The notes under the pieces: model-generated
Told to the model about the DNA's origin: nothing
The model's input: the letters and a program-made list of their open reading frames with translations, nothing else
Database searches by the model: none
In this document: positions 1 to 51,275 of the stretch, piece by piece
Position numbering within the stretch: position 1 is the first letter of the stretch
Layout: each line of letters opens with the position of its first letter
IMG/VR virus record: IMGVR_UViG_3300031519_006853
Location: 1-64,000 of that record
DNA from: a virus
DNA: 64,000 bases
Reading direction: 5' to 3' (one strand)
Position numbers and translations under genes: made by a program

Positions 1-41
1 ATGATAAAGCAGTAATAGAAGATTTAATTAAAACGTGTTAA

Positions 42-1286
42 ATGAAAAATGTTAAAAGAGTAGGTTTCTTTAAACTTGGTAAAGCGATTAAGTTTAATGA
101 AAATAGTTGGGGAGCAATCGGTGGAGATTGTGAACCTAAGCAACTGATAAATTCAATTGCAAAAAGAAATCCTAATATTGAATATTGGATATTAAGTCCA
201 AATGATTTAGGTAGAGTTAGAGCAAAGGAAAAACCAGCAGTTCAATCATTATTTGGAGATCCTGTTGTAGCAGAGTTAGCAGCAGAACCAAATATTCATG
301 AGTTTCATTCTAAAATGGAGAACAGAAAATCTGCTGATGAAACTGTAAAATTTATAAAAGAATTAGATTTAGATTTTATTTTCTTTTATACTGGACCATC
401 AAGTACAGTTAACATACCTAATTATATTAACAAGAAAGATGGCAATGGTCAAGTTAAATCATTAGACTTTTTTAAATATTATGCGGCTCCGATAATTCAA
501 GCGATGAATGAGTTGGAAAAGAAAGTACCGATTGTTGGTTTGCTTGTAGATAACCGATATGTATTAGCCTGTAAAGATTGGGGTATTAATAATAGGCCTA
601 CATATTACTTAGCTCAAAATAATTTTACAAAAGAAGAACAATATTTTTATCAACCACCATTAAGGGATGTTAAAACTATTACATCTACTTATGAATATTC
701 AGGAATTGAAACTGTCTTTCTTTTAGATAAGACTAGATATAACACCGATGAATTGTTTGAAATGAAAAAGACAAACTCATTTATGATGTTACAAAATCAA
801 GGAAAAGGTACAGGCGGAATGGACCGATGGGATCCTGTTAAAGATTATATTGTAGAGAATGATATAAAGACTGATATTTATGGTAAGTGGGATGATGAAT
901 TAAAAGAAAAATATCCAGATTGGTTTAAAGGAGAAAAAAGAATTGAATCAATGACAGATGAATTACTTTCTACTAAGTATACCTTCTGTGTACCTATTAA
1001 AGAAGGAATGGTAACCTCTAAGTATGCTGAAATGCTACACTATGGTATTATACCATTCTTACATCCATCTTACGATACTGAATTTAATGTCTTCCCTGAT
1101 GGTCATTTCATTAGATGCAAATCTCCAGAAGATTTAAAAAAGAAAGTAGAGTTTTTAAATGCAAACCCAGATCATTATAAAAAGCTCTTTTATAATCTCC
1201 AAGAAAAATACTTAAAAGATTCCTATTATACTGGAGAACATGTAGATAATAAAATCTGGGAAGCTTATAACAAAATAACAAAATAA
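42..1286 (+). CDS. GT-B glycosyltransferase, T4 beta-glucosyltransferase-like (putative DNA glycosyltransferase)
   Basis: C-terminal half (IYGKW...TSKYAEMLHYGIIPFLHPSYDTEF...FIRCKSPEDLKKKVEFL) parallels the T4 BGT C-domain; in an operon with an NDP-sugar epimerase and a C5-MTase-like gene. Confidence 0.65.
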   Translation: MKNVKRVGFFKLGKAIKFNENSWGAIGGDCEPKQLINSIAKRNPNIEYWILSPNDLGRVRAKEKPAVQSLFGDPVVAELAAEPNIHEFHSKMENRKSADETVKFIKELDLDFIFFYTGPSSTVNIPNYINKKDGNGQVKSLDFFKYYAAPIIQAMNELEKKVPIVGLLVDNRYVLACKDWGINNRPTYYLAQNNFTKEEQYFYQPPLRDVKTITSTYEYSGIETVFLLDKTRYNTDELFEMKKTNSFMMLQNQGKGTGGMDRWDPVKDYIVENDIKTDIYGKWDDELKEKYPDWFKGEKRIESMTDELLSTKYTFCVPIKEGMVTSKYAEMLHYGIIPFLHPSYDTEFNVFPDGHFIRCKSPEDLKKKVEFLNANPDHYKKLFYNLQEKYLKDSYYTGEHVDNKIWEAYNKITK

Positions 1287-1290
1287 AAAT

Positions 1291-2313
1291 ATGTATAATT
1301 CAGAAACAAAAATCCTAGTAACAGGCGGTGCCGGCTTTATTGGTACAAATTTTATTAATGATTTATTAAATAGGGGCCATAACCCAGACTGTATTGCAGT
1401 TGTTGATAATATGTCTAATGGTACTTATATACCTAAAGTCCATGATAAAATTAAAAATTTTAATAAAGTAGATATTAGAAATCAATATGTTGAAACTGTA
1501 ATCGAAAAATTTGCACCTGATTATGTATATCATTTTGCAGGGTGGGTTTCTATATATGATTGCAACGCAGATCCTTATGAAGCAGTAGATAACAATATCT
1601 TAGGAAGTATTAATGTAATGAACGGTTGTGTTAAAGCAAATGTAAAAAGAATTATTTTTAGTGAAACTTCAGCAGTATATGAAAATTGTAAAATGGGTGA
1701 TGAAGGTTATAATGAAACACAATCAGATCCTACTACAATTTATTCTACAACAAAGGCATGTCTTGCTTTATTAGCAGAATCATACCAAAGAACTAAAGGT
1801 TTAAATTATACTGCACTTAGATATTTTAATGTAGCAGGACCTTTGCAAGATTATCATAGAACAGTACCTCCAGTATTTGCTGGATTTATACTAAGAATAA
1901 TGGGTGGTCATAATCCTATAGTGTTTGGTGATTATAAAAAATCAAGAGATTATATTAATGTTGCTGATGTTAATGCATTCCATATTCTCTGTATGGAAAA
2001 TAAAGATACTGCAAATCAAACATTTAATTTAGGAACAGGTAAAATGACAAACTTATTAGATCTTAAAAACTTAATTGCTGATGAAATGGATGTAAGCGGT
2101 ATACCGTTTGATCATTATGATGCAATTGCAGGCGAAGCTGTATATTCTTTTGGAGATGTATCTAAAGCAAAATCTATGGGATGGGATCCTAAGAAAGATA
2201 TTGTTGATACGATAAAAGAAACTATTGACTATTTAAAAAATGAAGTTAAAGAAGGCACCATTAATCCATTAACATTTATGGAAGATTTAGAAATTGAAAA
2301 AGTAAAAATATGA
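1291..2313 (+). CDS. NAD-dependent nucleotide-sugar epimerase/dehydratase (extended SDR, GalE-like)
   Basis: VTGGAGFIG Rossmann motif, YSTTK (YxxxK), LRYFNVAGP. Confidence 0.92.
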   Translation: MYNSETKILVTGGAGFIGTNFINDLLNRGHNPDCIAVVDNMSNGTYIPKVHDKIKNFNKVDIRNQYVETVIEKFAPDYVYHFAGWVSIYDCNADPYEAVDNNILGSINVMNGCVKANVKRIIFSETSAVYENCKMGDEGYNETQSDPTTIYSTTKACLALLAESYQRTKGLNYTALRYFNVAGPLQDYHRTVPPVFAGFILRIMGGHNPIVFGDYKKSRDYINVADVNAFHILCMENKDTANQTFNLGTGKMTNLLDLKNLIADEMDVSGIPFDHYDAIAGEAVYSFGDVSKAKSMGWDPKKDIVDTIKETIDYLKNEVKEGTINPLTFMEDLEIEKVKI

Positions 2314-3578
2314 ACAAAGAAAAAGAATTAAAGTGGGGTACTATGATTCCGTTAATCGGAGGTAGTGCAATAGGTTGCAATAAAGCAACAGGTAATTTAC
2401 CAGCATTTCATTTAAGCTATGAAGCTTTTGCTGCTAATGAAAGCCATATAGAAGATTATTGGCCAGATGTACCTATGTATAGAATAGATCACGAAGAATT
2501 AGATATTCCTAATCAAACATTCGAACAGGTAGATTTTGTAAATTCTGTTTGTCCTTGTGCAGGTTTATCGCAGTTAAATTCTGCTAGTGGTAGCGCCTCA
2601 TCTAGAGGATCTGATGCGGTCCAAAATCAATGGATGTATAATTCAGCAGAGTATGTTTTGGAGAATGTTAAACCTAAAGTCTTATGGGGTGAAAATGCAC
2701 CAGGTCTTTTTACTAAAATGGGGCAAGGTGTTGTTGATAATCTTAAAGCTATCGGTGAAAAATATGGATATAGCTTTTCATTAATTAAAACTAATACTGA
2801 ACTACATGGAATACCACAAAGAAGAATAAGAACATTTTATTTCTTTTGGAATACACCAACAGTACCTTTATTAGGATGGAAGTTTAGAGAAAAGAAACAT
2901 CTTATAGATTATCTTAAAGAAGTACCAGAAGATGCAACACTACAAGATATGTTTATGGTTGAAGGTAAAGTAACTGATCATTATAAACCTTATGAATTTG
3001 TATTGGAAAAGGAAGGTTTAAATCATGCTGATTTTGCTAAGAAATTTGGTAAAGGTACGATTGCTCAATATTTAGAAAAGAATGATCTTTTAGATGAGTG
3101 TATTAATTGGTTAGATAAAAAATATCATAAACAAGGATTCTCTAATAAAAAATCAACAAAATCATTTGGTGATATGCTAGAACACCAGAAATATAAAACA
3201 AGCCAAGGCTTAGGTTATTGGGATGCTTCACCGCATTTCTTTAATGAAAGCTTTTCTGCTCTTATTGGTAGAAATATGTTTAATGGTGTACACCCAACAG
3301 AAAACAGATATCTAAACATTAGAGAAATGTTACACTTAATGGGATTACCATTAGACTTTGGAATTAAAGATGCTAGGCAAGTTAATCATATTGCTCAAAA
3401 TGTACCAGCAACAACTGCAATGGATATGGCAGTAGAAGTTAAAAAATTCTGTGAAGGTAAAGCTAAAATGACAAACTTTACTTTTATGAAGCAGGATAAT
3501 ACAAGTCAGAAAATCTTAGTAACGGAAGAGCTAGGTGCAATACCTAAAAAGAAGTATAAAGTTAAGAGTACTTTTTAA
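2310..3578 (+). CDS. DNA cytosine-C5 methyltransferase-fold protein with atypical SAM-binding motif I
   Basis: Motif IV CPCAGLS (Cys83), VI ENAPGL, VIII GIPQRRIR, IX RYLNIREMLHLMGLP, X IAQNVP; motif I is IPLIGG instead of FxGxGG. Confidence 0.85.
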   Translation: MNKEKELKWGTMIPLIGGSAIGCNKATGNLPAFHLSYEAFAANESHIEDYWPDVPMYRIDHEELDIPNQTFEQVDFVNSVCPCAGLSQLNSASGSASSRGSDAVQNQWMYNSAEYVLENVKPKVLWGENAPGLFTKMGQGVVDNLKAIGEKYGYSFSLIKTNTELHGIPQRRIRTFYFFWNTPTVPLLGWKFREKKHLIDYLKEVPEDATLQDMFMVEGKVTDHYKPYEFVLEKEGLNHADFAKKFGKGTIAQYLEKNDLLDECINWLDKKYHKQGFSNKKSTKSFGDMLEHQKYKTSQGLGYWDASPHFFNESFSALIGRNMFNGVHPTENRYLNIREMLHLMGLPLDFGIKDARQVNHIAQNVPATTAMDMAVEVKKFCEGKAKMTNFTFMKQDNTSQKILVTEELGAIPKKKYKVKSTF

Positions 3579-3625
3579 AACTAAATTAAATTAATGCATA
3601 TAACAATAAACAAATAATAAATTCA

Positions 3626-4375
3626 ATGGAAGCAACTATTAAAAAAATTGACGGTTACGAATTAAGTACATTCGTCAAAAAACTTTTACCGATTGATAAA
3701 TTCATTTTTATGAAAATTGGAAAGGAAGGAACCGTTTCATCTGTATACTTCCCAGAAAGGGACGCAGTGAAACTAGTATCAACACCAACATCAGATATCT
3801 TTGATACTGACATTACTGATCCAGTAAAAGTTAGTTTTTATAATGGTACTAAAGTGATTGATGCATTAGCTCATTTTAATGGAGATGTACAAGGTAAAAT
3901 TAAATACTCTGAGATTGATGGAGAATTAATGGCAAGTGATTTTACTTTAGAAAATGAAGATCTTCAAATTAACTTAGCATGTGCAGATCCATCTTTATCT
4001 TTTATGGAAATGAGTAAAGAAGAAACCGATCGTGCATTTAGTGTTGACGGAAGTATATTTCAATTTGATCTTTTAACAACTCATGTAGATAAAATGAAAT
4101 CTCTATTTAATTTAGAAAGAGAAGAAGATACATTTACATTAACAGTAACAGATAAAGGAATTGCCGTGCAAGGACTTTCATATGATGCAACATTATCGCA
4201 TTCGTATGAAGGTGAAAATGCAATAGACCAAAAGGTAGTAATTTACAAAAAATATATTAACCTTTTAGATAAAGAAAACTATAAAGTGGTAGTTTGTAAT
4301 AATAAAGTTGTATTTAGATCTTTAGATACCAACACTCACTTAACTGTCGCAGTTGCGATTACTGACGAGGATTAA
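3626..4375 (+). CDS. Putative DNA polymerase sliding clamp (gp45-like)
   Basis: About 250 aa, acidic, two-domain beta-rich pattern, ACADPS motif at mid-protein, lies just upstream of the polymerase gene. Confidence 0.6.
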   Translation: MEATIKKIDGYELSTFVKKLLPIDKFIFMKIGKEGTVSSVYFPERDAVKLVSTPTSDIFDTDITDPVKVSFYNGTKVIDALAHFNGDVQGKIKYSEIDGELMASDFTLENEDLQINLACADPSLSFMEMSKEETDRAFSVDGSIFQFDLLTTHVDKMKSLFNLEREEDTFTLTVTDKGIAVQGLSYDATLSHSYEGENAIDQKVVIYKKYINLLDKENYKVVVCNNKVVFRSLDTNTHLTVAVAITDED

Positions 4376-4398
4376 TTTTAAATATCCTTAATCTAAAC

Positions 4399-4440
4399 AA
4401 AAGGCCTCCTATCCAATTAAGGAAACAGGAGGCCTTTTTC
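4399..4440 (+). terminator. Rho-independent terminator
   Basis: aaaaggcctcct (4399-4410) / aggaggcctttt (4427-4438) inverted repeat ending in a T tract. Confidence 0.85.
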
Positions 4441-4443
4441 TTA

Positions 4444-4470
4444 AAACTTTTTATAGTTTTTAGCATATAA
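4444..4470 (+). promoter_or_regulatory. Putative middle-class promoter AAAC-N16-CATATAA (one of 13 copies)
   Basis: Recurring bipartite motif upstream of replication genes; see finding. Confidence 0.65.
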
Positions 4471-4486
4471 AAATAAAAAATAAATT

Positions 4487-4726
4487 ATGGCATACATAAG
4501 TAAAACCGGATTAAAGGTAAGTATAGGTAAAAAGAATGGTCAAGAAACTATTGAATTTATAGAATTTGATACTAGGTACCAAGATACTTATATTCAATAC
4601 ATCACAGAGTATTTTAACCCTGTAATAGGTATATATGATGAAAGCAAAACCCAAATATATTTTGAAGGTAATGATACTTTGCTAATTGATCAAGCCTTTG
4701 CAGTAACCTCAGGTGAATTAACATAA
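4487..4726 (+). CDS. Hypothetical protein
   Basis: 79-aa ORF with promoter and A-rich leader, abutting polB. Confidence 0.6.
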   Translation: MAYISKTGLKVSIGKKNGQETIEFIEFDTRYQDTYIQYITEYFNPVIGIYDESKTQIYFEGNDTLLIDQAFAVTSGELT

Positions 4727-4727
4727 T

Positions 4728-5852
4728 ATGACAGAAACTACTGAGTTACAACAAATTAATAAAGAGGCTAGTAAATTTTATAATTATGAACAGGCCGTTA
4801 AGTTAATGCTTAATTCTATATACGGTGCATTTGGTAATCCTTACTTTTATTTCTTTAATATAGACATTGCAGAAACAATAACTTTACAAGGTAAAGATGC
4901 TATTCTTTATACCGAGGAATTATTAAATAGATATTTTAGATTGTATTGGCATAAAGATATTGCTGCTCATAAAGAAATGGGTATTACTGTTACCGGTAAA
5001 ATTGAAAATCCAGTAGGTATTTATATTGATACAGATTCAGTTTATGTTAAGTTTGATGAAGTCATTGCAAAATCAGAAGGTTTTGATGGCGATGATAAGG
5101 AATTTATTTTAAAGTTATATAAGTGTAGAGTAAATGGTTATTTAGAAAAAATTCTCCAAAGATATGCTGATGATAATAATTCAGAAAACTTTTTATCTTT
5201 TGAATTAGAAAGTATTGCTAAAAATGCAATATGGTTAGCAAAGAAAAAGTACATGCAAAATATTGTATGGAAAGATCCAGATATTCATTATGAAGATTTA
5301 TCCAAAATTAGTTCTAAAGGGTTTGAAATTATTCAATCTTCAACTCCAATATTTGCTAGAGAAAAACTAAAAGATTTATTAACATACATTTTTTCTGTGG
5401 AAAAATTAGATATGAAAGCTTTTGCTGCATTATTAAAAGATATTAAAAGGCAATTTAAATTAGCTAATGTAGACCAAATCTGTTTTTCTAGAAAAGTAAA
5501 TAATTATCAAAAATATATTGTTAATGATTATGAAGCTTTTGAATTTGGATCAAGATGTCCAATTGGTGTAAGGTCCGCAGGTTATCATAATTATTTATTA
5601 AACAACTCTTCATCTAAAGGCAAGTATCAACCTTTAGGAAATGGTGAAAAATGTAAAATGTACTTTTCTAAAGATAAATCTTGTGATGTCTTTGCATTCG
5701 CACCAGGTGATTATCCTTATGAGTTTGCACCAGAAATTGATCATGATAGACAATTTGAAAAAACAATACTAGATCCAATTAATCGTGTTGTTACAGCAAT
5801 GGGATTTAAAGCATTTAATAGAAATCTTATTTATACCACGAGTTTATTTTAA
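4728..5852 (+). CDS. gp43: Family B DNA polymerase, C-terminal subunit (split gp43)
   Basis: Motif B KLMLNSIYG, motif C YIDTDS, KKKY and KGFE motifs; no exonuclease domain or motif A. Confidence 0.92.
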   Translation: MTETTELQQINKEASKFYNYEQAVKLMLNSIYGAFGNPYFYFFNIDIAETITLQGKDAILYTEELLNRYFRLYWHKDIAAHKEMGITVTGKIENPVGIYIDTDSVYVKFDEVIAKSEGFDGDDKEFILKLYKCRVNGYLEKILQRYADDNNSENFLSFELESIAKNAIWLAKKKYMQNIVWKDPDIHYEDLSKISSKGFEIIQSSTPIFAREKLKDLLTYIFSVEKLDMKAFAALLKDIKRQFKLANVDQICFSRKVNNYQKYIVNDYEAFEFGSRCPIGVRSAGYHNYLLNNSSSKGKYQPLGNGEKCKMYFSKDKSCDVFAFAPGDYPYEFAPEIDHDRQFEKTILDPINRVVTAMGFKAFNRNLIYTTSLF

Positions 5853-5899
5853 AGTAAACAAAAAGCAAAAAATACATATAATAATAAATAGAAAACAAC

Positions 5900-7108
5900 A
5901 TGGCAAAAGAATTCTCATTCGCAGATTTAAATAAAGAAATGTCAAAGATATCCGAATACGGAGAGACTTTAGACAAATCAACAATTTCAGAAATTGATCA
6001 TTATATTCCTACTGGGAATTATCATCTTAATGCATGTCTAACTGGATCTTTATTCGGAGGTTATCCAAATAATAGAGCAGTTGCATTAGCAGGACCTTCT
6101 GGTACAGGAAAAACATATCTTATTTTAAATGCAATTAAACAAGCACAAAAACAAGGTTATAGTATTGTATTTTATGATTCAGAAAATGCAGTAGACAAAT
6201 CTTTAGTAGAAAAGTTTGGAATTGATGCTTCAAAATTTAGATATGAACCATGTAATACAGTTCAAGAATTTAGAAGTTCAGTAACTGCAATTACTGATGT
6301 ATTAATTGAACAAAAGAAAAAGGGTATTGCATTGCCAAAAATAATGGTAGTTTTAGATTCTGCTGGTAACCTTGCAACTCAAAAAGAAATTGATGATGCA
6401 AAGACTGGAAGTAGTAAAGCAGATATGACAAGAGCTAAACTTTTAAAATCTACTTTTAGAATTATTATGACTCAATTTGGAATTTGTAAAATTCCATTCT
6501 TATTTACAAACCATACTTACCAAACACAAGATCTGTTTTCAAGGCAAGTTGGTGGAGGTGGTACTGGGCCAGAGTATGCAGCATCAATTATTTTGTTTTT
6601 AGGTAAAGCTAAACTTAAAGAAGGTATTGAGCAAACCGGTATTATTGTAACTGCTAAACCAAATAAAAATAGATTTGCAAAACCAACAAATATTAAATTT
6701 CATATTTCTTTTAATAAAGGTATGAATCCTTATGTAGGATTAGAAGAATACATAGGATGGGATATCTGTGGTATTGAAAGAGGAAGATTTATTACCGAAG
6801 GTGCTTTTAATAAATTACCAGATCCAGGTAAAGCTGATTGTAGAAAACATTCGTTTACTAAAGATAAAAAAGAAATTACAGTTTATTTTCAACCATCGCC
6901 TACTGCTCGTAAGATATGTGTTAAACACTTAAATGATGCAGTAGATCTTAGTCAATTATATACCCCTCAGGTTTTAACTGAAGATGTATTAAAATTAATA
7001 GAACCTCAGGTAGTTGCTAAATTTAATTATGGTGATGAATTAGAGCAAGAAGAATTATCAGACATAATTACAGAAACAACAGTTGATGATGTTACCGAAA
7101 ACTCTTAA
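5900..7108 (+). CDS. uvsX: RecA-like recombinase UvsX
   Basis: Walker A GPSGTGKT, YDSENA, VLDSAGNL, GGGGTGPEYAAS, KNRFAKP. Confidence 0.93.
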   Translation: MAKEFSFADLNKEMSKISEYGETLDKSTISEIDHYIPTGNYHLNACLTGSLFGGYPNNRAVALAGPSGTGKTYLILNAIKQAQKQGYSIVFYDSENAVDKSLVEKFGIDASKFRYEPCNTVQEFRSSVTAITDVLIEQKKKGIALPKIMVVLDSAGNLATQKEIDDAKTGSSKADMTRAKLLKSTFRIIMTQFGICKIPFLFTNHTYQTQDLFSRQVGGGGTGPEYAASIILFLGKAKLKEGIEQTGIIVTAKPNKNRFAKPTNIKFHISFNKGMNPYVGLEEYIGWDICGIERGRFITEGAFNKLPDPGKADCRKHSFTKDKKEITVYFQPSPTARKICVKHLNDAVDLSQLYTPQVLTEDVLKLIEPQVVAKFNYGDELEQEELSDIITETTVDDVTENS

Positions 7109-7388
7109 TACAGCAAAGCTTAAAGTAAAGTATGTATTAGGAAATCACACAACATTACCACATTACCCTGATACTGAAGATATACTTTTTGAATTAATAC
7201 GTGATTATTGTGGTAAAGTTGCTAAAGAGATTAAATTTACAGATATCTCAATGGCTAAAAGATGGAATTTATCTAAAGAAGAATGTAATATTCTTTTAAA
7301 GGAATTATTAAAGCATAAGTTTTTGGAAATATCTTTACAAAATTCTGCTTATACTACTTATGAAGTAATTTATAATCCATACCAATAA
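7083..7388 (+). CDS. Hypothetical protein, possible winged-helix
   Basis: Helix-rich ORF ending in a beta-hairpin-like TTYEV; start may be 7086 or 7089. Confidence 0.5.
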   Translation: MMMLPKTLNTAKLKVKYVLGNHTTLPHYPDTEDILFELIRDYCGKVAKEIKFTDISMAKRWNLSKEECNILLKELLKHKFLEISLQNSAYTTYEVIYNPYQ

Positions 7389-7426
7389 AACTAATTATGT
7401 TTTTTAGCATATAAAAATAAAACTAC

Positions 7427-8713
7427 ATGAAATCAAGTATAGATCACGAAAAGATTTTCTTTAACTATTTTTTAACAAAACCACATTATCTGAAAGGGAC
7501 AGGTAATGGGTTTTTTGCTAATAGAGATTTAGATCAGATTGCAAAGTTATCAAAAGCATTTTATTTAAAATTTGGCGAAAGCCCATCTAAACAACAGATG
7601 TCAGCTTTAGTTAAGGATGATCCTAATGAAATATCACAGGATATTGTAAAATCTATTTATGATATTAATATAAATGAATATGATCAGGATTGGTTAAAGA
7701 GAACTGGTGAAGCATGGGTTAAATGGAAACATTTTGATAAACAATTAGTAAGAACAATTGAATATGTAAAAACTCAAGATGTATCACCAGAAAATGTAGA
7801 AGATGTAGTTCAGCGTGCAATAGGAATGATTTCAACTGATGGTTCAATTAATTTTGATACTGATACTGGTTTAGATTTCTTTAATCCTGAATCACATATA
7901 CAAAGAACATCAAAGAAAATAGAAACTGGGTGGTCTTTCGTAGACAGAGTATCAGGTGGAGGTTATGATACAAAATCTTTAATCGTTTATGCAGGTGAAC
8001 AAAATATTGGTAAATCTATATGGTTAGCTAATGACGCAGCTAATTTTGTTAAGATGGGCCATAACGTAGTTTTCATTACAGCTGAGATGTCAGCTCAAAA
8101 AGTATTAAAAAGAATAGGAGCTAATCTTTTACATGTACCAATGAGTGAATATGATAAACATTCAGGTAATAGAGATTATATGAAAAGGAAGTTGGAAAAA
8201 GTATCAAGAGGTTTATTACCTCCTGGTAAATTATTTGTAAAAGAATATCCAACTTCACAAGGAACTATACCAGATATAGAATCTTACTTAAAAGATTTAG
8301 AAGAATCAACAGATCATAAAGTAAATGTATTAGTTGTAGATTATATTAATATTCTTGCAAATTATAGAAATCCTAATACTGAAAATACTTATATGAAGAT
8401 TAAGCAGATTGCAGAAGATCTTAGAGCATTAGCAGTTAAAAGAGATATGTTAGTAATATCTGCAACTCAAATTAATCGTGGTGCATGGGATGCAACTGAA
8501 GTAAGAATGGAAAACATTGCAGAATCTGCAGGTCTTGCGCATACTGCTGATGTAATGTATGCATTAATACAAGATTCAGTAATGCACGCCGAACGTGAAT
8601 ATTGGTTAAAGGTTTTAAAAATTAGAGATGGTCAAGGAAAGGGCTCAAGATGTAGATTTAACATTGACTATGAACATATGAGATTAACGGAAACTGATGA
8701 TATATCAGGGTAA
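7427..8713 (+). CDS. gp41: Replicative DnaB-like helicase (gp41)
   Basis: AGEQNIGKS Walker A, ITAEMS, VVDYINI, SATQINR, IAESAG. Confidence 0.93.
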   Translation: MKSSIDHEKIFFNYFLTKPHYLKGTGNGFFANRDLDQIAKLSKAFYLKFGESPSKQQMSALVKDDPNEISQDIVKSIYDININEYDQDWLKRTGEAWVKWKHFDKQLVRTIEYVKTQDVSPENVEDVVQRAIGMISTDGSINFDTDTGLDFFNPESHIQRTSKKIETGWSFVDRVSGGGYDTKSLIVYAGEQNIGKSIWLANDAANFVKMGHNVVFITAEMSAQKVLKRIGANLLHVPMSEYDKHSGNRDYMKRKLEKVSRGLLPPGKLFVKEYPTSQGTIPDIESYLKDLEESTDHKVNVLVVDYINILANYRNPNTENTYMKIKQIAEDLRALAVKRDMLVISATQINRGAWDATEVRMENIAESAGLAHTADVMYALIQDSVMHAEREYWLKVLKIRDGQGKGSRCRFNIDYEHMRLTETDDISG

Positions 8714-41973: not shown

Positions 41974-42777
41974 ATGAAGAAAAATATAGTTTGGTTTGAT
42001 TTAGAAACCACAGGAATCAGCACAACAGCTGACCGCATAATTGAGATCTGTATGATTAAAACAGATTTTGATGGTAATGAGATTGAAACTTACAATCAAT
42101 TAGTAAATCCAGGAAATGTAGAAATGAGAGCCGAGGCTGAAGAAAAGCACGGCATATCTTTAGAGATGCTAAAGGATAAACCAACCTTTGAAATGATAGC
42201 ATCTGAAATCAATGACTTTATTGGTGATAGTGACTTAGGAGGGTATAATGCCTTATTCTTTGATGTTCCTTTCTTATGTGAGGAATTCATGAGATGTGGT
42301 ATTGTATTTAACCATAGAGGTAGAGCTGTAATGGATCCATTCCTTATATACAGTAACTATGAAAAAAGAGATCTAACAAATACTTATAAAAAATTTACAG
42401 GTAAAGATTTAGAAGGTGCACATAGGGCTGAGGCTGATGTCAGAGCTACAATGGAAATATTTCAAAAACAAAGAGAAGTATATGATATGCCACAAACTGC
42501 CGAAGAAATTGATAAGGTAGTAAATACTCGTAGAGCTGATCAGGTTGATTTAGGAGGTAAGTTAAAATTTGATGAAATTAATGGAAAGAGAACAATCGTA
42601 TTTAATTTTGGAAAGAATAAAGGCAAACCGTTCAAAGAAGTTGTTGAAATGGATGGTAGGTATATTGATTGGATTATTGATAAAGGTGAATTCTCCACAG
42701 AGTTAAAAGTCATATGTAGAAAACTCGTAGCAAAGTTTAAAGCAGATGAAAATAAAAATATAGAAATGCCATACTAA
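41974..42777 (+). CDS. DEDDh 3'-5' exonuclease (DnaQ/ExoX-like)
   Basis: FDLETTG, YN..FFDVPFL, HRAEADV; C-terminal FGKNKG module. Confidence 0.92.
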   Translation: MKKNIVWFDLETTGISTTADRIIEICMIKTDFDGNEIETYNQLVNPGNVEMRAEAEEKHGISLEMLKDKPTFEMIASEINDFIGDSDLGGYNALFFDVPFLCEEFMRCGIVFNHRGRAVMDPFLIYSNYEKRDLTNTYKKFTGKDLEGAHRAEADVRATMEIFQKQREVYDMPQTAEEIDKVVNTRRADQVDLGGKLKFDEINGKRTIVFNFGKNKGKPFKEVVEMDGRYIDWIIDKGEFSTELKVICRKLVAKFKADENKNIEMPY

Positions 42778-47644: not shown

Positions 47645-47881
47645 ATGGCAAATACTAAAAATGTAATTTACGATGCGTTAAAATCGCAATTTGAAGCACA
47701 AAAACAAAAAGCTTTAGCAACATTAACAATTTATTTAACTAACCCAGTAGGCATTGGAGAACACCCTCAACATATTGATGAAATGATGGAAATGTCTAGA
47801 ACATTAGCAGAGGCAGAAGATGTTATTTCAACATTAGAAAGAACATTTGAATCTACCGAAGAATCTGCTCCGAATGAATAA
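47645..47881 (+). CDS. Conserved phage hypothetical protein
   Basis: YLTNPVGIGEHP motif. Confidence 0.65.
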   Translation: MANTKNVIYDALKSQFEAQKQKALATLTIYLTNPVGIGEHPQHIDEMMEMSRTLAEAEDVISTLERTFESTEESAPNE

Positions 47882-48353
47882 AGTTATATTAATAGGAAAG
47901 GCTGCTGCTGGAAAAGATCATATGAGAAAGGTTTTAGAAGGTAGAGGTTTTACATACGGTACTTCTTATACAACCAGGCCTCCTAGGAAAGGTGAAATAG
48001 ATGGCCAAGATTATTATTTTATTTCTGAAAAAGATTTTAAAAAATTTGCAGACAATAATTATTGGTATGAGTATGTAGAATTTAATGGATGGTTTTATGG
48101 AACTAGTTATGATCAATTTATGAATACTTGTAATTTGTTTGTAATGACACCTAAGGGTGTAGAAGCAGTAAATCCTATTCATAGAAAAGATTGTACAATC
48201 ATTTATTTAGATATACCTTTAGAAGTTAGAACAAATCGTTTAAAAGAAAGAGGTGATCTTAATGATAAAATCCAAAGAAGAATAGACGCAGATGAAGTTG
48301 ACTTTAAAGATTTTAAAGATTATGATATTTTAATAAACAATTCTAACTTTTAA
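47874..48353 (+). CDS. gmk: Guanylate kinase-like nucleotide kinase
   Basis: GKAAAGKD, TTRPPRKGEIDGQDYYF, FNGWFYGT; ATG at 47874 preferred. Confidence 0.9.
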   Translation: MNKVILIGKAAAGKDHMRKVLEGRGFTYGTSYTTRPPRKGEIDGQDYYFISEKDFKKFADNNYWYEYVEFNGWFYGTSYDQFMNTCNLFVMTPKGVEAVNPIHRKDCTIIYLDIPLEVRTNRLKERGDLNDKIQRRIDADEVDFKDFKDYDILINNSNF

Positions 48354-48371
48354 TCATATAAAAATAAAACA

Positions 48372-48983
48372 ATGAGTAAATTTATTATTATAGAAGGTAC
48401 CGATAATGTAGGTAAAGATACACAACAAGATTTAATTATTAAAAATATGAGTGAACATGTTTTTCATAAGTTACATTATTCATCATTACCGTTTAAAGAT
48501 GATAAAGAAAAGCATGCAACATATTCTAAAGAACTTTATGAAAGCATGTTTTTATTAATGATGAAATCCAAACTTGCTCATAAAAAAGGTGATGCAAATA
48601 TTAATCTTATATTTAATAGATCTCATTTAGGTGAAACTGTTTATTCTCCATTATATAGAGGTTACTCTGGTGATTATGTTTTTGATATTGAAAAGAAATT
48701 TACTAAAGCCTTAAGAGAAGATTTATATTTAATTACATTAACCAATGATCCACATACAATATTAAAAAGAGATGATGGTAAATCATTTTATGGTAATGAA
48801 GAAGAAGTTAAAGCTGAGGTTGATGGATTTAGGCGTGCTCATAGGTTAAGTACCATTAAAAATAAATTACATGTAGATGTAGGTACAATGAGTGCAATTG
48901 AAGTTTCTAATATTATTACAGATTTCTTAAATCATGAAAATACAGTAACAGGTGATAACAAACAATTAAACTTATTTGTGTAA
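48372..48983 (+). CDS. dNMP/thymidylate kinase-like (candidate modified-dCMP kinase)
   Basis: IIIEGTDNVGKDT P-loop, FNRSHLGETVY. Confidence 0.85.
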   Translation: MSKFIIIEGTDNVGKDTQQDLIIKNMSEHVFHKLHYSSLPFKDDKEKHATYSKELYESMFLLMMKSKLAHKKGDANINLIFNRSHLGETVYSPLYRGYSGDYVFDIEKKFTKALREDLYLITLTNDPHTILKRDDGKSFYGNEEEVKAEVDGFRRAHRLSTIKNKLHVDVGTMSAIEVSNIITDFLNHENTVTGDNKQLNLFV

Positions 48984-49171
48984 TGTCAACAGCTGAAGAT
49001 ATACTTTACCAAGCCCATTATGAAGGGATTAAAGATTTAGTTTTTAAAGAATCTAAAAGATTAAGAACAGAAGATCCAAAGAAATGGAAATATGCAGAAT
49101 ACGTAGTTGTATTAGAAGAAGCTTATAGGATAGTCAAAGAACGAAACAAAAAAAATAATGAGAACATATAG
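48983..49171 (+). CDS. Hypothetical protein
   Basis: 62-aa coupled ORF. Confidence 0.55.
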   Translation: MSTAEDILYQAHYEGIKDLVFKESKRLRTEDPKKWKYAEYVVVLEEAYRIVKERNKKNNENI

Positions 49172-50042
49172 AGGAGATACATTTGCAGATGTTTATGAAA
49201 AAGCATTAAGAGATACTTTAGACAATCCTGATTATACTTCTAAACCAAGAGGTATGGAAATTAAAGAAATATGCAATGCAGCCTTAGTTATAGATGATCC
49301 TTATTTTCCACTTTATGAAAATAAAAAAAGAAGTAGCCAATTTAAATATATTGCTGGTGAAACTGTATGGTATTTTACAGGAAGAAAGGATATTGATTTT
49401 ATAAGTAAGTATTCTAAATTTTGGAGTCAATTAGACAATGGTGATGGTACTGTAAACTCTGCTTATGGAAATCTTATATTTAAGGAATTACTTTCTGATG
49501 GTAGAAATCAATACCAATGGGCATTAGATTCTTTAATAGAAGATAAAGATTCAAGACAATCAATTATACACTTTAACAAACCTTCTCACCAATGGCAAGG
49601 TAATAAAGATTTTGTATGTACTCTTAATGGTGTATTTCAAATCAGAGATAACAGATTAAACTTTACTGTTGATATGAGATCCAATGATTTAATATTAGGT
49701 ACAGCAACTGATGTGGCATTCTTTTGTTTATTACAACAACAAATGTTAAAGCATTTACAATTATATTATCCTAATCTTAAAATGGGTTCGTATACTCATA
49801 TAGTTCATTCATTACATATTTATGAAAGACATTTTGAATTAGTAAAAGAAATGTTAAGCAATGAATTTACTCACATGTCATACCCACCTTTAAATAGAAA
49901 CTTAATTACAGCAAAGGGCCATCCTACTGATGAAATGAATTTATTAGAATTAGAAATTTTAGAAGAAGGTCCTGTTGCTTTATTTAAAGATCCATTATTT
50001 AAATGGTTATCTGATTATAGCTTTCAACTAACTGATATATAA
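49158..50042 (+). CDS. Thymidylate-synthase-fold dCMP-modifying enzyme (dCMP hydroxymethylase, gp42-like)
   Basis: VNSAYG, DFVCT (Cys154), MRSNDLILGTATD with Asp185 at the dUMP/dCMP specificity site, SLHIYERH. Confidence 0.82.
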   Translation: MRTYRGDTFADVYEKALRDTLDNPDYTSKPRGMEIKEICNAALVIDDPYFPLYENKKRSSQFKYIAGETVWYFTGRKDIDFISKYSKFWSQLDNGDGTVNSAYGNLIFKELLSDGRNQYQWALDSLIEDKDSRQSIIHFNKPSHQWQGNKDFVCTLNGVFQIRDNRLNFTVDMRSNDLILGTATDVAFFCLLQQQMLKHLQLYYPNLKMGSYTHIVHSLHIYERHFELVKEMLSNEFTHMSYPPLNRNLITAKGHPTDEMNLLELEILEEGPVALFKDPLFKWLSDYSFQLTDI

Positions 50043-50057
50043 TAAAATTACTTATAA

Positions 50058-51275
50058 GTGTTGAAATATCTAAAACTTTTTGAACAGTTCCTACACCTAA
50101 CAGAAAAGAAACCTGCCGGTGCTCCTGAATTCTATCACTCTGATGCACCTGATGCTGAAGGCAGATTCAAAGATCTTTCTATAAAAGATTTAGCTGCATG
50201 GTTAATTAAAACCAGAAAAAAGGATGTTAAAAAGATTAGCGGTTCTTTAACACAGCAGGTAGTTTTTAATAGAAAAAGCGATCCAAAGTATGCTGAAAAG
50301 ATGGAGAAAACCAGAAAAGAAGTATATAAACAATTAGGTAGAGAAGATTTATTAAAGGAATCGGTTAATACTGAAGGCGGTTTAGGTAAAGTTTATTTAG
50401 CATTAAGAGAAGATAGCGGACAAAGATGGTGGACTTATAAAGGTTTTGCTGGAGATAATTTCTTTACTCAGATCCATGAAAATAACATGAATGATATTGA
50501 TATTAATCCTGACTACCCAGTTTTAACATATCACTCAGATACAGTTAATAAACTAATAAAGGCTGGTAAGATTAAAAAAGAAAATGTTTATAACCACCCA
50601 GACCATATATCAAAATCTGGATCTAAAGAAGAATTCCATAAACTGGTTGGAGAAGATGAAAATATACCGAAGACAGTATATTCTAAAAATGATGCATTAG
50701 AAAAATTAGAATTTCCTATTATTGCAAAACCTGCAGAAGGTCATAGCGGTAAAGGTATTCAAATTATTAATAAACCAGATTTAATGGAAGATGTAGATGA
50801 AAAGATCTTTGATACATTTTCAGAATATATTGATAAAGAAGAAGAACATAGATTTATAAACTTTAAAGGTAAGCCTATCTTTTGGATGGAAAGAACTCCA
50901 TTAAATGAAAAAGCTAAAACTGGTAAAGGTAGTGCTAAAAGTGAAATGGAATTTGGTTATGCAAAAAGGAGCTTAAGTGATTTACCTGAAGATTATAGAA
51001 AAGTCTTAGAAAGATTCTGTAAGATCTATGAAGATTTACCTTATATGTGTTTTGATGTAATGAAAGGTAAAAATGGAAAAGTATATATTATTGAATCAAA
51101 TGCACAACCTGGAGTACCTTTTGATTCAACTGTTGAGGCTTATAAACATATCTATGAAGATTTTTATAAGAAACCTCTTGATAAAGAAAGTTTAACTAAA
51201 CTAAATGAATACGCAAAAACTATGATTGAAAAGACCCTCAAAAAAGATGGTGGTAAAAGATTTTCAATTAAATAG
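50058..51275 (+). CDS. ATP-grasp (RimK-like) ligase with N-terminal extra domain and CTS-like leader
   Basis: FPIIAKPAEGHSGKGI, SEYID..EHR, FDVM...YIIESNAQPG; GTG start. Confidence 0.85.
   Translation: MLKYLKLFEQFLHLTEKKPAGAPEFYHSDAPDAEGRFKDLSIKDLAAWLIKTRKKDVKKISGSLTQQVVFNRKSDPKYAEKMEKTRKEVYKQLGREDLLKESVNTEGGLGKVYLALREDSGQRWWTYKGFAGDNFFTQIHENNMNDIDINPDYPVLTYHSDTVNKLIKAGKIKKENVYNHPDHISKSGSKEEFHKLVGEDENIPKTVYSKNDALEKLEFPIIAKPAEGHSGKGIQIINKPDLMEDVDEKIFDTFSEYIDKEEEHRFINFKGKPIFWMERTPLNEKAKTGKGSAKSEMEFGYAKRSLSDLPEDYRKVLERFCKIYEDLPYMCFDVMKGKNGKVYIIESNAQPGVPFDSTVEAYKHIYEDFYKKPLDKESLTKLNEYAKTMIEKTLKKDGGKRFSIK

Follow-up and report, generated by a model that had tools for sequence, protein, structure and literature searches.

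A putative T-even-type hydroxymethylcytosine pathway with a BGT-like glycosyltransferase and a divergent C5-methyltransferase-fold partner in an uncultured marine phage

Glycosylated hydroxymethylcytosine is a textbook counter-defence of phages, and to our knowledge it is known almost exclusively from the enterobacterial T-even phages. Here we describe three coupled genes at the beginning of a 64,000-nucleotide stretch of viral DNA (hereafter the window), which covers bases 1–64000 of the 181,663-base IMG/VR contig IMGVR_UViG_3300031519_006853; the contig itself starts at base 1, and CheckV estimates its completeness at 65%. The genes encode a glycosyltransferase (GT) whose fold is closest to T4 beta-glucosyltransferase (BGT), an epimerase of nucleoside diphosphate (NDP)-sugars, and a protein with the fold of the C5-cytosine methyltransferases (Table 1). 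Reading sequence and structural models together, we consider it on balance probable that this uncultured phage has a T-even-type pre-replicative pathway to 5-hydroxymethylcytosine (5hmC), that the BGT-like enzyme glycosylates the base with a home-made, epimerised NDP-sugar, and that the methylase-fold partner acts, most simply, on residual cytosines. The lineage is abundant, uncultured and marine, with hundreds of near-identical metagenome copies on contigs of up to 219 kb. T-even logic would then operate in an abundant marine lineage with a GT family that is BGT-like by structure only and with its own sugar-nucleotide tailoring. The central puzzle is the conserved C5-methyltransferase-fold partner, with rewritten cofactor motifs, in genomes whose cytosines should carry a C5 substituent already. 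An ordinary methylase would mean two-layer protection of the cytosines, whereas a non-methylating enzyme would stand for DNA-modifying chemistry of a new kind and might serve as a tool enzyme.

Probable hydroxymethylcytosine supply and the BGT-like glycosyltransferase

The AlphaFold2 model of the GT was built from a 48-sequence alignment, in which Asp111 is near-invariant, and has a mean predicted local distance difference test score (pLDDT) of 92.9. Its best Foldseek match is T4 BGT (1qkj, E 2e-10). With VIA-align the model superposes on T4 BGT (1j39) at Z 23.1 and a root-mean-square deviation of 3.7 (314/344 residues), about 3 units above the next group (GT4/BshA, Z 19–20), and T4 alpha-glucosyltransferase (AGT) follows at Z 18.6. 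Among the predicted viral structures of BFVD, the second-best match is annotated as DNA beta-glucosyltransferase. At the sequence level, hmmscan against all of Pfam (E <= 0.01) yielded only Glyco_trans_1_2, at 19.2 bits and under the cut-off of 25, and a search of PHROGs gave no match. The preliminary description of this DNA, made from its letters alone, had called the protein BGT-like, which is right for the fold and does not extend to membership of the sequence family; as modelled, the product is supported as a candidate BGT-like DNA glycosyltransferase.

DNA is favoured as the acceptor of the sugar mainly because the GT family adjoins hydroxymethylase-type homologues of thymidylate synthase (TS) in unrelated phages; homology of the GTs in the compared loci was confirmed with phmmer. 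In Enterococcus phage Planchet, which has three GTs, the homologue lies near a kinase, a pyrimidine hydroxymethylase and a dUTPase, and in Agathobaculum phage AB434P2 it adjoins a TS homologue of the dCMP-hydroxymethylase type. The gene order in Pseudoalteromonas phage XG4 is TS homologue, nucleotidyltransferase of 559 amino acids (aa), GT, 368-aa protein and methylase; that of marine locus L016 is TS homologue, dUTPase/DCD, HAD, 527-aa nucleotidyltransferase, GT and methylase; and that of locus L023 is TS homologue, dCMP deaminase, dUTPase, nucleotidyltransferase, HAD, GT, methylase and UvsX. A family of about 370 aa without a Pfam match recurs within these hmC/GT modules (XG4, L013 4238–5344; L023 6865–8004; AB434P2, L012 4497–5582) and is not present in the window.

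Two genes of the thymidylate synthase family are found in the contig. One of them, at 101248–102222 of the genome, is a true ThyA that keeps Asn177. The other lies within the window, and its PDB scores are 92.8 bits for the CMP hydroxymethylase MilA and 88.5 bits for T4 gp42, against 53 bits for the best true TS. Aligned with T4-like gp42, RB69 gp48 and the genome's own ThyA, it shows the Cys in KDFVCT, the motifs MRSND and TATD, and Asp at the positions of ThyA 143, 169 and 177. According to a published rule for TS homologues, Asp177 marks a cytosine substrate, an acidic residue at 143 marks a hydroxymethyl product, and Asn169 marks a 5-hydroxy-dCMP synthase such as RB69 gp48 (PMC13326640); in the alignment, gp48 reads RSQN in place of RSND. 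The window's gene therefore has the whole residue set of a dCMP hydroxymethylase (catalytic Cys, Asp at N177, an acidic residue at L143, Asp169 kept), and the GT-linked TS homologues of XG4, L016, L023, Planchet and AB434P2 also carry Asp at the three ThyA positions. Two nucleotide kinases stand directly upstream, and a kinase is likewise found beside the TS homologue in DLP3, RB69 and RL38J1 (PMC13326640). The genome also has a dCMP deaminase.

Because of the hydroxymethylase signature and the two upstream kinases, the phage very probably makes 5-hydroxymethyl-dCTP (5hm-dCTP) before replication in the manner of T4, and the hydroxymethyl group most likely comes from this classical route rather than from the methylase fold. 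The preliminary description had implicated the methylase fold in making the modified base, an idea that gives way to the hydroxymethylase-type gene and its kinases at 47847–50042; its wider proposal, that the phage hypermodifies cytosine, is very probably correct in view of the BGT-like fold and the same genes. No dCTPase was found in the 65% complete contig, and family searches of it for dUTPase, dUTPase_2, MazG, NUDIX and HMUDK_hel returned nothing, which is weak evidence in an incomplete contig. Directly after the hydroxymethylase-type gene, at 50058–51275, there is a gene for an ATP-grasp ligase (weak YheCD/RimK/TTL-like matches), which could be a member of the base-modification pathway or unrelated to it.

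In the pathway that we propose, the TS homologue would turn dCMP into 5-hydroxymethyl-dCMP, as its active-site signature suggests, the adjacent kinases would raise this to the triphosphate, and the phage polymerase would incorporate 5hmC. After replication the BGT-like enzyme, of the GT-B fold, would move a sugar from an NDP-sugar to the 5-CH2OH of 5hmC in DNA, a step to which both the fold and the conserved neighbourhoods point. The sugar would be activated by the nucleotidyltransferase whose gene ends at 1–41 and tailored by the GalE-like 4-epimerase, and judging from the latter the transferred sugar is probably not plain glucose but a C4-epimer. As a first guess, the methylase-fold enzyme would methylate the cytosines not replaced by 5hmC, leaving all cytosines protected; a partial replacement of cytosine would fit with the finding of no dCTPase in the contig.

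The methyltransferase-fold partner

The third protein of the cluster retains the catalytic apparatus of the C5-methyltransferases, namely P82-C83 of motif IV, E128-N129-A130 of motif VI, Q170-R-R-I-R174 of motif VIII, R333...G345-L-P347 of motif IX and Q363-N364-V-P366 of motif X, all of which are invariant or nearly so across its clade (20- and 6-sequence alignments). It matches PF00145 at 66.8 bits (cut-off 22), the match beginning at residue 55, past motifs I and II, and it scores 42 with NCBIfam dcm against a cut-off of 100.65. A single-sequence phmmer search of PDB gave no match, and the PDB matches were obtained via a profile. The structural model (pLDDT 87) superposes on HaeIII, HhaI, DNMT1, Cp-933R MTase and CmoX at Z 23–24 over residues ~5–384; most of the segment that separates motif VIII from motif IX is helical, and Asn364 takes the position of HhaI Asn304 and CmoX Arg350. 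Going by this model, the product is an intact, cytosine-flipping and Cys83-dependent enzyme of the C5-methyltransferase fold that belongs to a distinct clade.

What sets the clade apart is its cofactor side. Motif I reads I13-P-L-I-G-G18 instead of FxGxGG, a departure already pointed out in the preliminary description, and it proves to be clade-wide rather than a one-off: IPL[IV]GG is invariant throughout, including in relatives down to 31–34% identity (XG4, cyanophage S-TIM61, L023). The hhalign comparison, a local one of low probability that serves only as a guide, places IPLIGG over FAGIGG of E. coli Dcm, and the start of the structural alignment (model 5 onwards against HhaI 10 onwards) agrees with this placement. 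In the model beta-2 spans residues 33–36, with Tyr or Trp at position 37 and E, N, S, K, D, Q or P at position 38. Pro31, Phe40 and Asn43 are invariant in the clade and His46 is nearly so, Asn43 forming an Asn43-(Glu/Asp)44 pair on the next helix. A literature search found no paper describing the IPL[IV]GG clade or motif. The same motif I is also seen in clade members of 600–1465 aa at 52–59% identity (P0037–P0061, P0044, P0073, P0430–P0445), which lie on mRNA-sized contigs of 2–5 kb and in the transcriptome of the copepod Neocalanus flemingeri, one of them with a zf-CXXC domain; while the clade is mostly viral, these copies may come from eukaryotes or be associated with them.

An IPL[IV]GG methylase lies no more than three genes from a BGT-like GT in L005 and L008 (the window's lineage), L016, L017, L018, L023 and XG4, which makes five independent lineages, and the two genes are often adjacent or overlapping. 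In L021 the GT is adjoined by another kind of C5-methylase. Cyanophage S-TIM61 has a clade member 3 kb from an annotated ThyA (L001 2763–3599) that carries Asp at ThyA-177, HCPPCH and RSND; from these residues this ThyA looks dCMP-specific and is possibly a 5-methyl-dCMP synthase. One 889-aa protein (P0446, L027 10001–12670) joins an N-terminal part with a Pfam HMUDK_hel match (42.7 bits) to an IPLVGG member of the clade, and its neighbours are a TS homologue, a dUTPase/DCD, an inositol-1-phosphate synthase, an FkbM methyltransferase and an epimerase of the short-chain dehydrogenase/reductase (SDR) type. We treat this fusion as a lead only, as it is a single sequence from a contig of 2x coverage and its N-terminal part has no visible P-loop; a free-standing homologue of that part was found neither in any of the loci nor in the genome. 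No GT-methylase fusion was found among the longer relatives, which are C-terminally extended forms apart from the HMUDK_hel fusion. Looked at as a possible mark of CpG methylation, the CpG odds ratio of the contig as a whole is 0.42 and that of TpG/CpA 1.10, with CCGG and ACGT under-represented; across related and unrelated loci the CpG odds ratio ranges over 0.27–0.97, in no clear relation to the methylase.

Gene layout and the sugar island

The three open reading frames are taken as real genes because of the number of their relatives, 2591 for the methylase-fold protein and, for the GT, 151 near relatives plus 388 cluster representatives (exhaustive search). They are packed as the preliminary description had stated, with the TAA of the upstream gene directly abutting the ATG at 42, a 4-base gap (1287–1290) between the GT and epimerase genes, and an ATGA overlap (2310–2313) between the epimerase and methylase-fold genes. 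The window has about 30% G+C and almost every gene is on one strand. A megablast search of bases 1–8000 against phage records gave no match.

Table 1. Features of the window that bear on the proposed pathway
Feature	Position	Strand	Remarks
3' end of upstream gene, cut by contig start	1..41	+	TAA at 39-41; 234-aa NTP_transf_3-like nucleotidyltransferase in relatives
GT-B glycosyltransferase, 414 aa	42-1286	+	nearest structure T4 beta-glucosyltransferase; proposed 5hmC-DNA glycosyltransferase
Extended-SDR NDP-sugar 4-epimerase, GalE-like, 340 aa	1291-2313	+	PF01370, phrog_540, PDB matches
C5-cytosine methyltransferase-fold protein, IPL[IV]GG clade, 422 aa	2310-3578	+	catalytic motifs intact; motif I non-canonical, motif II apparently so
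Guanylate-kinase-like nucleotide kinase	47847-48353	+	PF00625 77 bits; phrog_1815
Thymidylate-kinase-like dNMP kinase, candidate 5hm-dCMP kinase	48372-48983	+	PF02223 24 bits (below cut-off); phrog_761 52.9 bits
Thymidylate-synthase homologue, dCMP hydroxymethylase signature, candidate 5hm-dCMP source	49158-50042	+	PDB scores; active-site residues

By its sequence matches the middle gene is soundly assigned to an NDP-sugar 4-epimerase. It scores 158 bits with PF01370 and 198 bits with phrog_540 (nucleotide-sugar epimerase), its top PDB matches are UDP-hexose 4-epimerases (4zrm, 145 bits), and NCBIfam GalE reaches 139.5 bits, under the equivalog cut-off of 262.3. The translation contains GGAGFIG, SETSAVY and YSTTK, that is, the GxxGxxG motif for NAD and the Ser/Thr-Tyr-Lys triad, and has no TDEVYG pair (the Asp-Glu of 4,6-dehydratases). 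The NDP-sugar epimerase of the preliminary description can thus be specified as a GalE-like 4-epimerase.

The region upstream of the contig start could be read through relatives. Window 1–5853 aligns at 83.5% identity to 9959–15796 of L005, a 218,985-base contig, and L008 is a closer relative with a GT 95% identical to that of the window. In both, the gene ending at the equivalent of 1–41 codes for 234 aa, and its NTP_transf_3/NTP_transferase match is weak or faint; it is the likely sugar-activating enzyme. A nucleotidyltransferase, one of the genes surmised to precede base 1, would accordingly have its last codons at 1–41. Ahead of the GT the two contigs carry ribonucleotide reductase (RNR), an SDR dehydratase, a PglD-like acetyltransferase, a DegT aminotransferase, a GT2, an Hc1-like gene, a HAD gene, a gene for a 248-aa protein and the 234-aa nucleotidyltransferase. 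L005 additionally has a KdsA-like gene, NUDIX and Methyltransf_24, while in L008 a GT1 and an FkbM methyltransferase separate the epimerase from the methylase and two further GT1 genes follow its polymerase piece. Given these gene contents, the trio forms the conserved core of a sugar island that varies around it, and it is not tightly coupled in every relative. Another sugar cluster follows just past the window, at 64.7–71.5 kb of the genome (L026 700–7458), with a weak GT2-like gene, a 443-aa hexapeptide transferase, Methyltransf_24, a 210-aa DegT piece, a SIS isomerase, a CTP_transf_3 cytidylyltransferase and a GT4-like gene; this set resembles a pathway of the 3-deoxy-manno-octulosonic acid (Kdo) or ulosonic-acid type, or like the arabinose-5-phosphate route as in RB69.

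On the 3' side the trio is followed by a conserved 249-aa gene, the C-terminal part of a family-B polymerase, a RecA/UvsX-like gene and a DnaB-like helicase, and by this predicted gene content its surroundings are the early DNA-metabolism region of a large phage. The 249-aa gene (3626–4375) stands directly after the methylase, is kept in L005, L008, L017 and L018, and has no Pfam match; among its language-model neighbours is a cluster with gp45 sliding-clamp C-terminal domains in 10% of the members. It was considered as a hidden dioxygenase and rejected, the protein-atlas lead pointing to a gp45-type sliding clamp. The family-B DNA polymerase is seemingly split, as its C-terminal part (4728–5852) comes after the methylase and the clamp-like gene and a phrog "polymerase exonuclease subunit" lies at 41974–42777, 36 kb away; in relatives, for which L008 1–1129 and L017 11355–12992 are the relevant positions, a 471-aa N-terminal polymerase piece is found upstream of RNR and the sugar island, and the polymerase piece of one relative contains an intein.

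Alternative explanations and known systems

A C5-methylase cannot act on cytosine that is substituted at C5, and in DNA fully substituted with hmC a C5-methyltransferase is without a substrate. Moreover, the Phe and the first Gly of FxGxG are missing from motif I and the acid expected at the end of beta-2 (37/38) is not conserved, so that the use of S-adenosylmethionine (SAM) is not assured. All of this weighs against methylation of residual cytosines, and it raises the alternative, put forward in the preliminary description and in our view unlikely, that the enzyme does not methylate: Cys83 would form its C6 adduct on C or 5hmC for the transfer or exchange of hydroxymethyl or for activation of the 5-CH2OH, with a non-SAM cofactor or none, in concert with the BGT-like enzyme. 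Extended to the whole clade, a proposal that we make just as tentatively, IPL[IV]GG proteins would be a new kind of DNA-modifying enzyme that abandoned the canonical SAM site, uses the Cys-C6 adduct to put a C5 substituent on C or 5hmC or to exchange or activate it there, and serves as the obligate partner of a BGT-like GT in abundant marine and freshwater phages. The clade-wide motif, the unconserved motif II acid and the new invariant residues (Pro31, Phe40, Asn43, with His46 in most) favour such non-methyl chemistry, as do the co-occurrence with TS homologues specific for dCMP, that of S-TIM61 included, which yield a product already substituted at C5, the frequent adjacency or overlap of the GT and methylase genes, and the one HMUDK_hel fusion beside a TS homologue and sugar genes. 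Yet ordinary methyltransferases have the same catalytic and motif X residues, down to the Asn in contact with the cofactor region, the model can be superposed on SAM-dependent enzymes from residue ~5 onwards, and the members on mRNA-sized contigs, with their one zf-CXXC, resemble ordinary DNA methyltransferases; the fusion, for its part, is the single low-coverage sequence without a visible P-loop described above. A further alternative, transfer of carboxymethyl from carboxy-SAM by an enzyme of the CmoX type, had been raised in the preliminary description. CmoX (8yf3) is among the structural matches at Z 23.6 and there is the ATP-grasp ligase gene at 50058–51275, but the protein fails the published sequence test, with CPC for SPPC and Asn364 (the HhaI-304 position) for the carboxyl-binding Arg, CmoA (TIGR00740) is unmatched in the 181-kb contig at its 65% completeness, and the characterised CmoY ligases are asparagine-synthetase-like and not ATP-grasp, which leaves this use of carboxy-SAM extremely improbable. 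We also hold it very improbable that the base is made after replication, by methylation to 5mC, oxidation to 5hmC by a TET-like dioxygenase and then glycosylation. Known clusters of this kind combine glycosyltransferases and epimerases with a cytosine methyltransferase specific to phages (PMC8256090; bioRxiv 10.1101/2023.12.21.572611), and the contig is incomplete (CheckV 65%); against this, Tet_JBP (PF12851) had no match at E <= 1 in the 181 kb, weak evidence given that incompleteness, no TET/JBP or other dioxygenase family is named among the called genes ~10 kb round the cluster in L005, L008, L016, L017, L018, L023 and L027, so that the oxygenase surmised 5' of base 1 was found neither in the contig nor in the flanks of relatives, and the pre-replicative hydroxymethylase is present instead.

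The acceptor of the sugar calls for similar weighing. Several observations tell against the proposed role on DNA: by sequence the GT does not belong to the T4-Gluco-transf (GT63) Pfam profile, near the trio the close relatives have as many as five glycosyltransferases together with an FkbM methyltransferase and a dehydratase, aminotransferase and acetyltransferase set of the bacillosamine type, and the second sugar cluster lies just past the window. This wealth of sugar genes exceeds the needs of DNA monoglycosylation and also resembles the synthesis of protein or cell-surface glycans. It keeps alive a rival in which the machinery is partly for non-DNA glycans: GT and epimerase would belong to a variable glycan island for virion proteins or host surface polymers, and the methylase would be an unrelated anti-restriction enzyme in the same hypervariable region between replication genes. 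Consistent with that rival are the many GT1/GT2, FkbM, PglD-like, DegT, SDR dehydratase, KdsA-like DAHP_synth_1, HAD and NUDIX genes near the trio in relatives, the variation in gene content between phages whose GTs are 95% identical, the GT1 and FkbM insertion in L008, the SIS isomerase and CTP_transf_3 of the second cluster, and a survey in which most phage GT contigs are without a base-modification neighbour (bioRxiv 10.1101/2023.12.21.572611). We nevertheless rate it as quite improbable, for among solved structures T4 BGT comes first with a lead of 3 Z units, the GT family adjoins genes of the dCMP-hydroxymethylase, dUTPase/deaminase and nucleotide-kinase types in Enterococcus, Agathobaculum and Pseudoalteromonas phages and in two marine lineages, and the genes lie amid early DNA metabolism (RNR, polymerase, clamp-like, UvsX-like RecA, DnaB).

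The favoured reading, glycosylation of pre-replicatively made 5hmC with a methylase partner on residual cytosines, can be set beside several known systems. With M.HhaI and M.HaeIII (PF00145) the methylase-fold protein shares the fold, motifs IV (PC), VI (EN), VIII (QxRxR), IX and X and an above-cut-off Pfam score, and it differs in IPL[IV]GG as opposed to FxGxGG, in the unconserved motif II acid and in the mainly helical VIII-IX region. The CmoA/CmoX/CmoY carboxymethylcytosine system of Synechococcus phage S-B43 (PMC12783734, PDB 8yf3) is another case of a C5-methyltransferase fold repurposed in marine phages (Z 23.6); CmoX keeps the motif I Phe, the motif II Glu, SPPC and Arg350, whereas the window's protein has IPLIGG, CPC and Asn364 in a contig where no CmoA was found. 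Phage clusters of methyltransferase, 5mYOX (TET) and GT likewise unite a C5-methyltransferase, a GT and an epimerase (PMC8256090; bioRxiv 10.1101/2023.12.21.572611), and methyltransferases and epimerases have been surveyed beside ThyS-associated GT-B genes as well (bioRxiv 10.1101/2023.12.21.572611). The present cluster differs from them in that no TET/JBP was found and 5hmC would be supplied pre-replicatively, and with such a supply the acceptor would be made without any need for the methylase.

The pentosyl- and arabinosyl-cytosine clusters of RB69, DLP3 and Thanatos (PMC13326640, PMC12838424) follow a common logic with the system proposed here, that is, a TS homologue, a kinase, a home-made NDP-sugar and a DNA-acting GT-B enzyme. 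The same nucleotidyltransferase of 520–560 aa is found in the marine relatives XG4, L016, L021 and L023, and a small HAD phosphatase in L016 and L023. The TS homologues of the RB69, DLP3 and Thanatos clusters are D169N and make 5-hydroxy-dCMP, whereas Asp169 is kept here, as in the hydroxymethylase type; those clusters are without a C5-methyltransferase, and the window's lineage has instead the 234-aa nucleotidyltransferase and the SDR epimerase. The T-even glucosyl-hmC pathway (gp42, gp1 dNMP kinase and BGT of CAZy GT63) has no C5-methyltransferase-fold gene, which in our phage is coupled to the GT; the GT here has 414 aa compared with 351 and by sequence is not placed in the Pfam family of BGT, and the contig yielded no dCTPase. 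What the two have in common is a TS homologue with the gp42 signature accompanied by nucleotide kinases, a GT-B enzyme nearest to T4 BGT, and a position of the genes amid early DNA metabolism, to which the marine phage would add its own nucleotidyltransferase and 4-epimerase, pointing to a sugar other than UDP-glucose.

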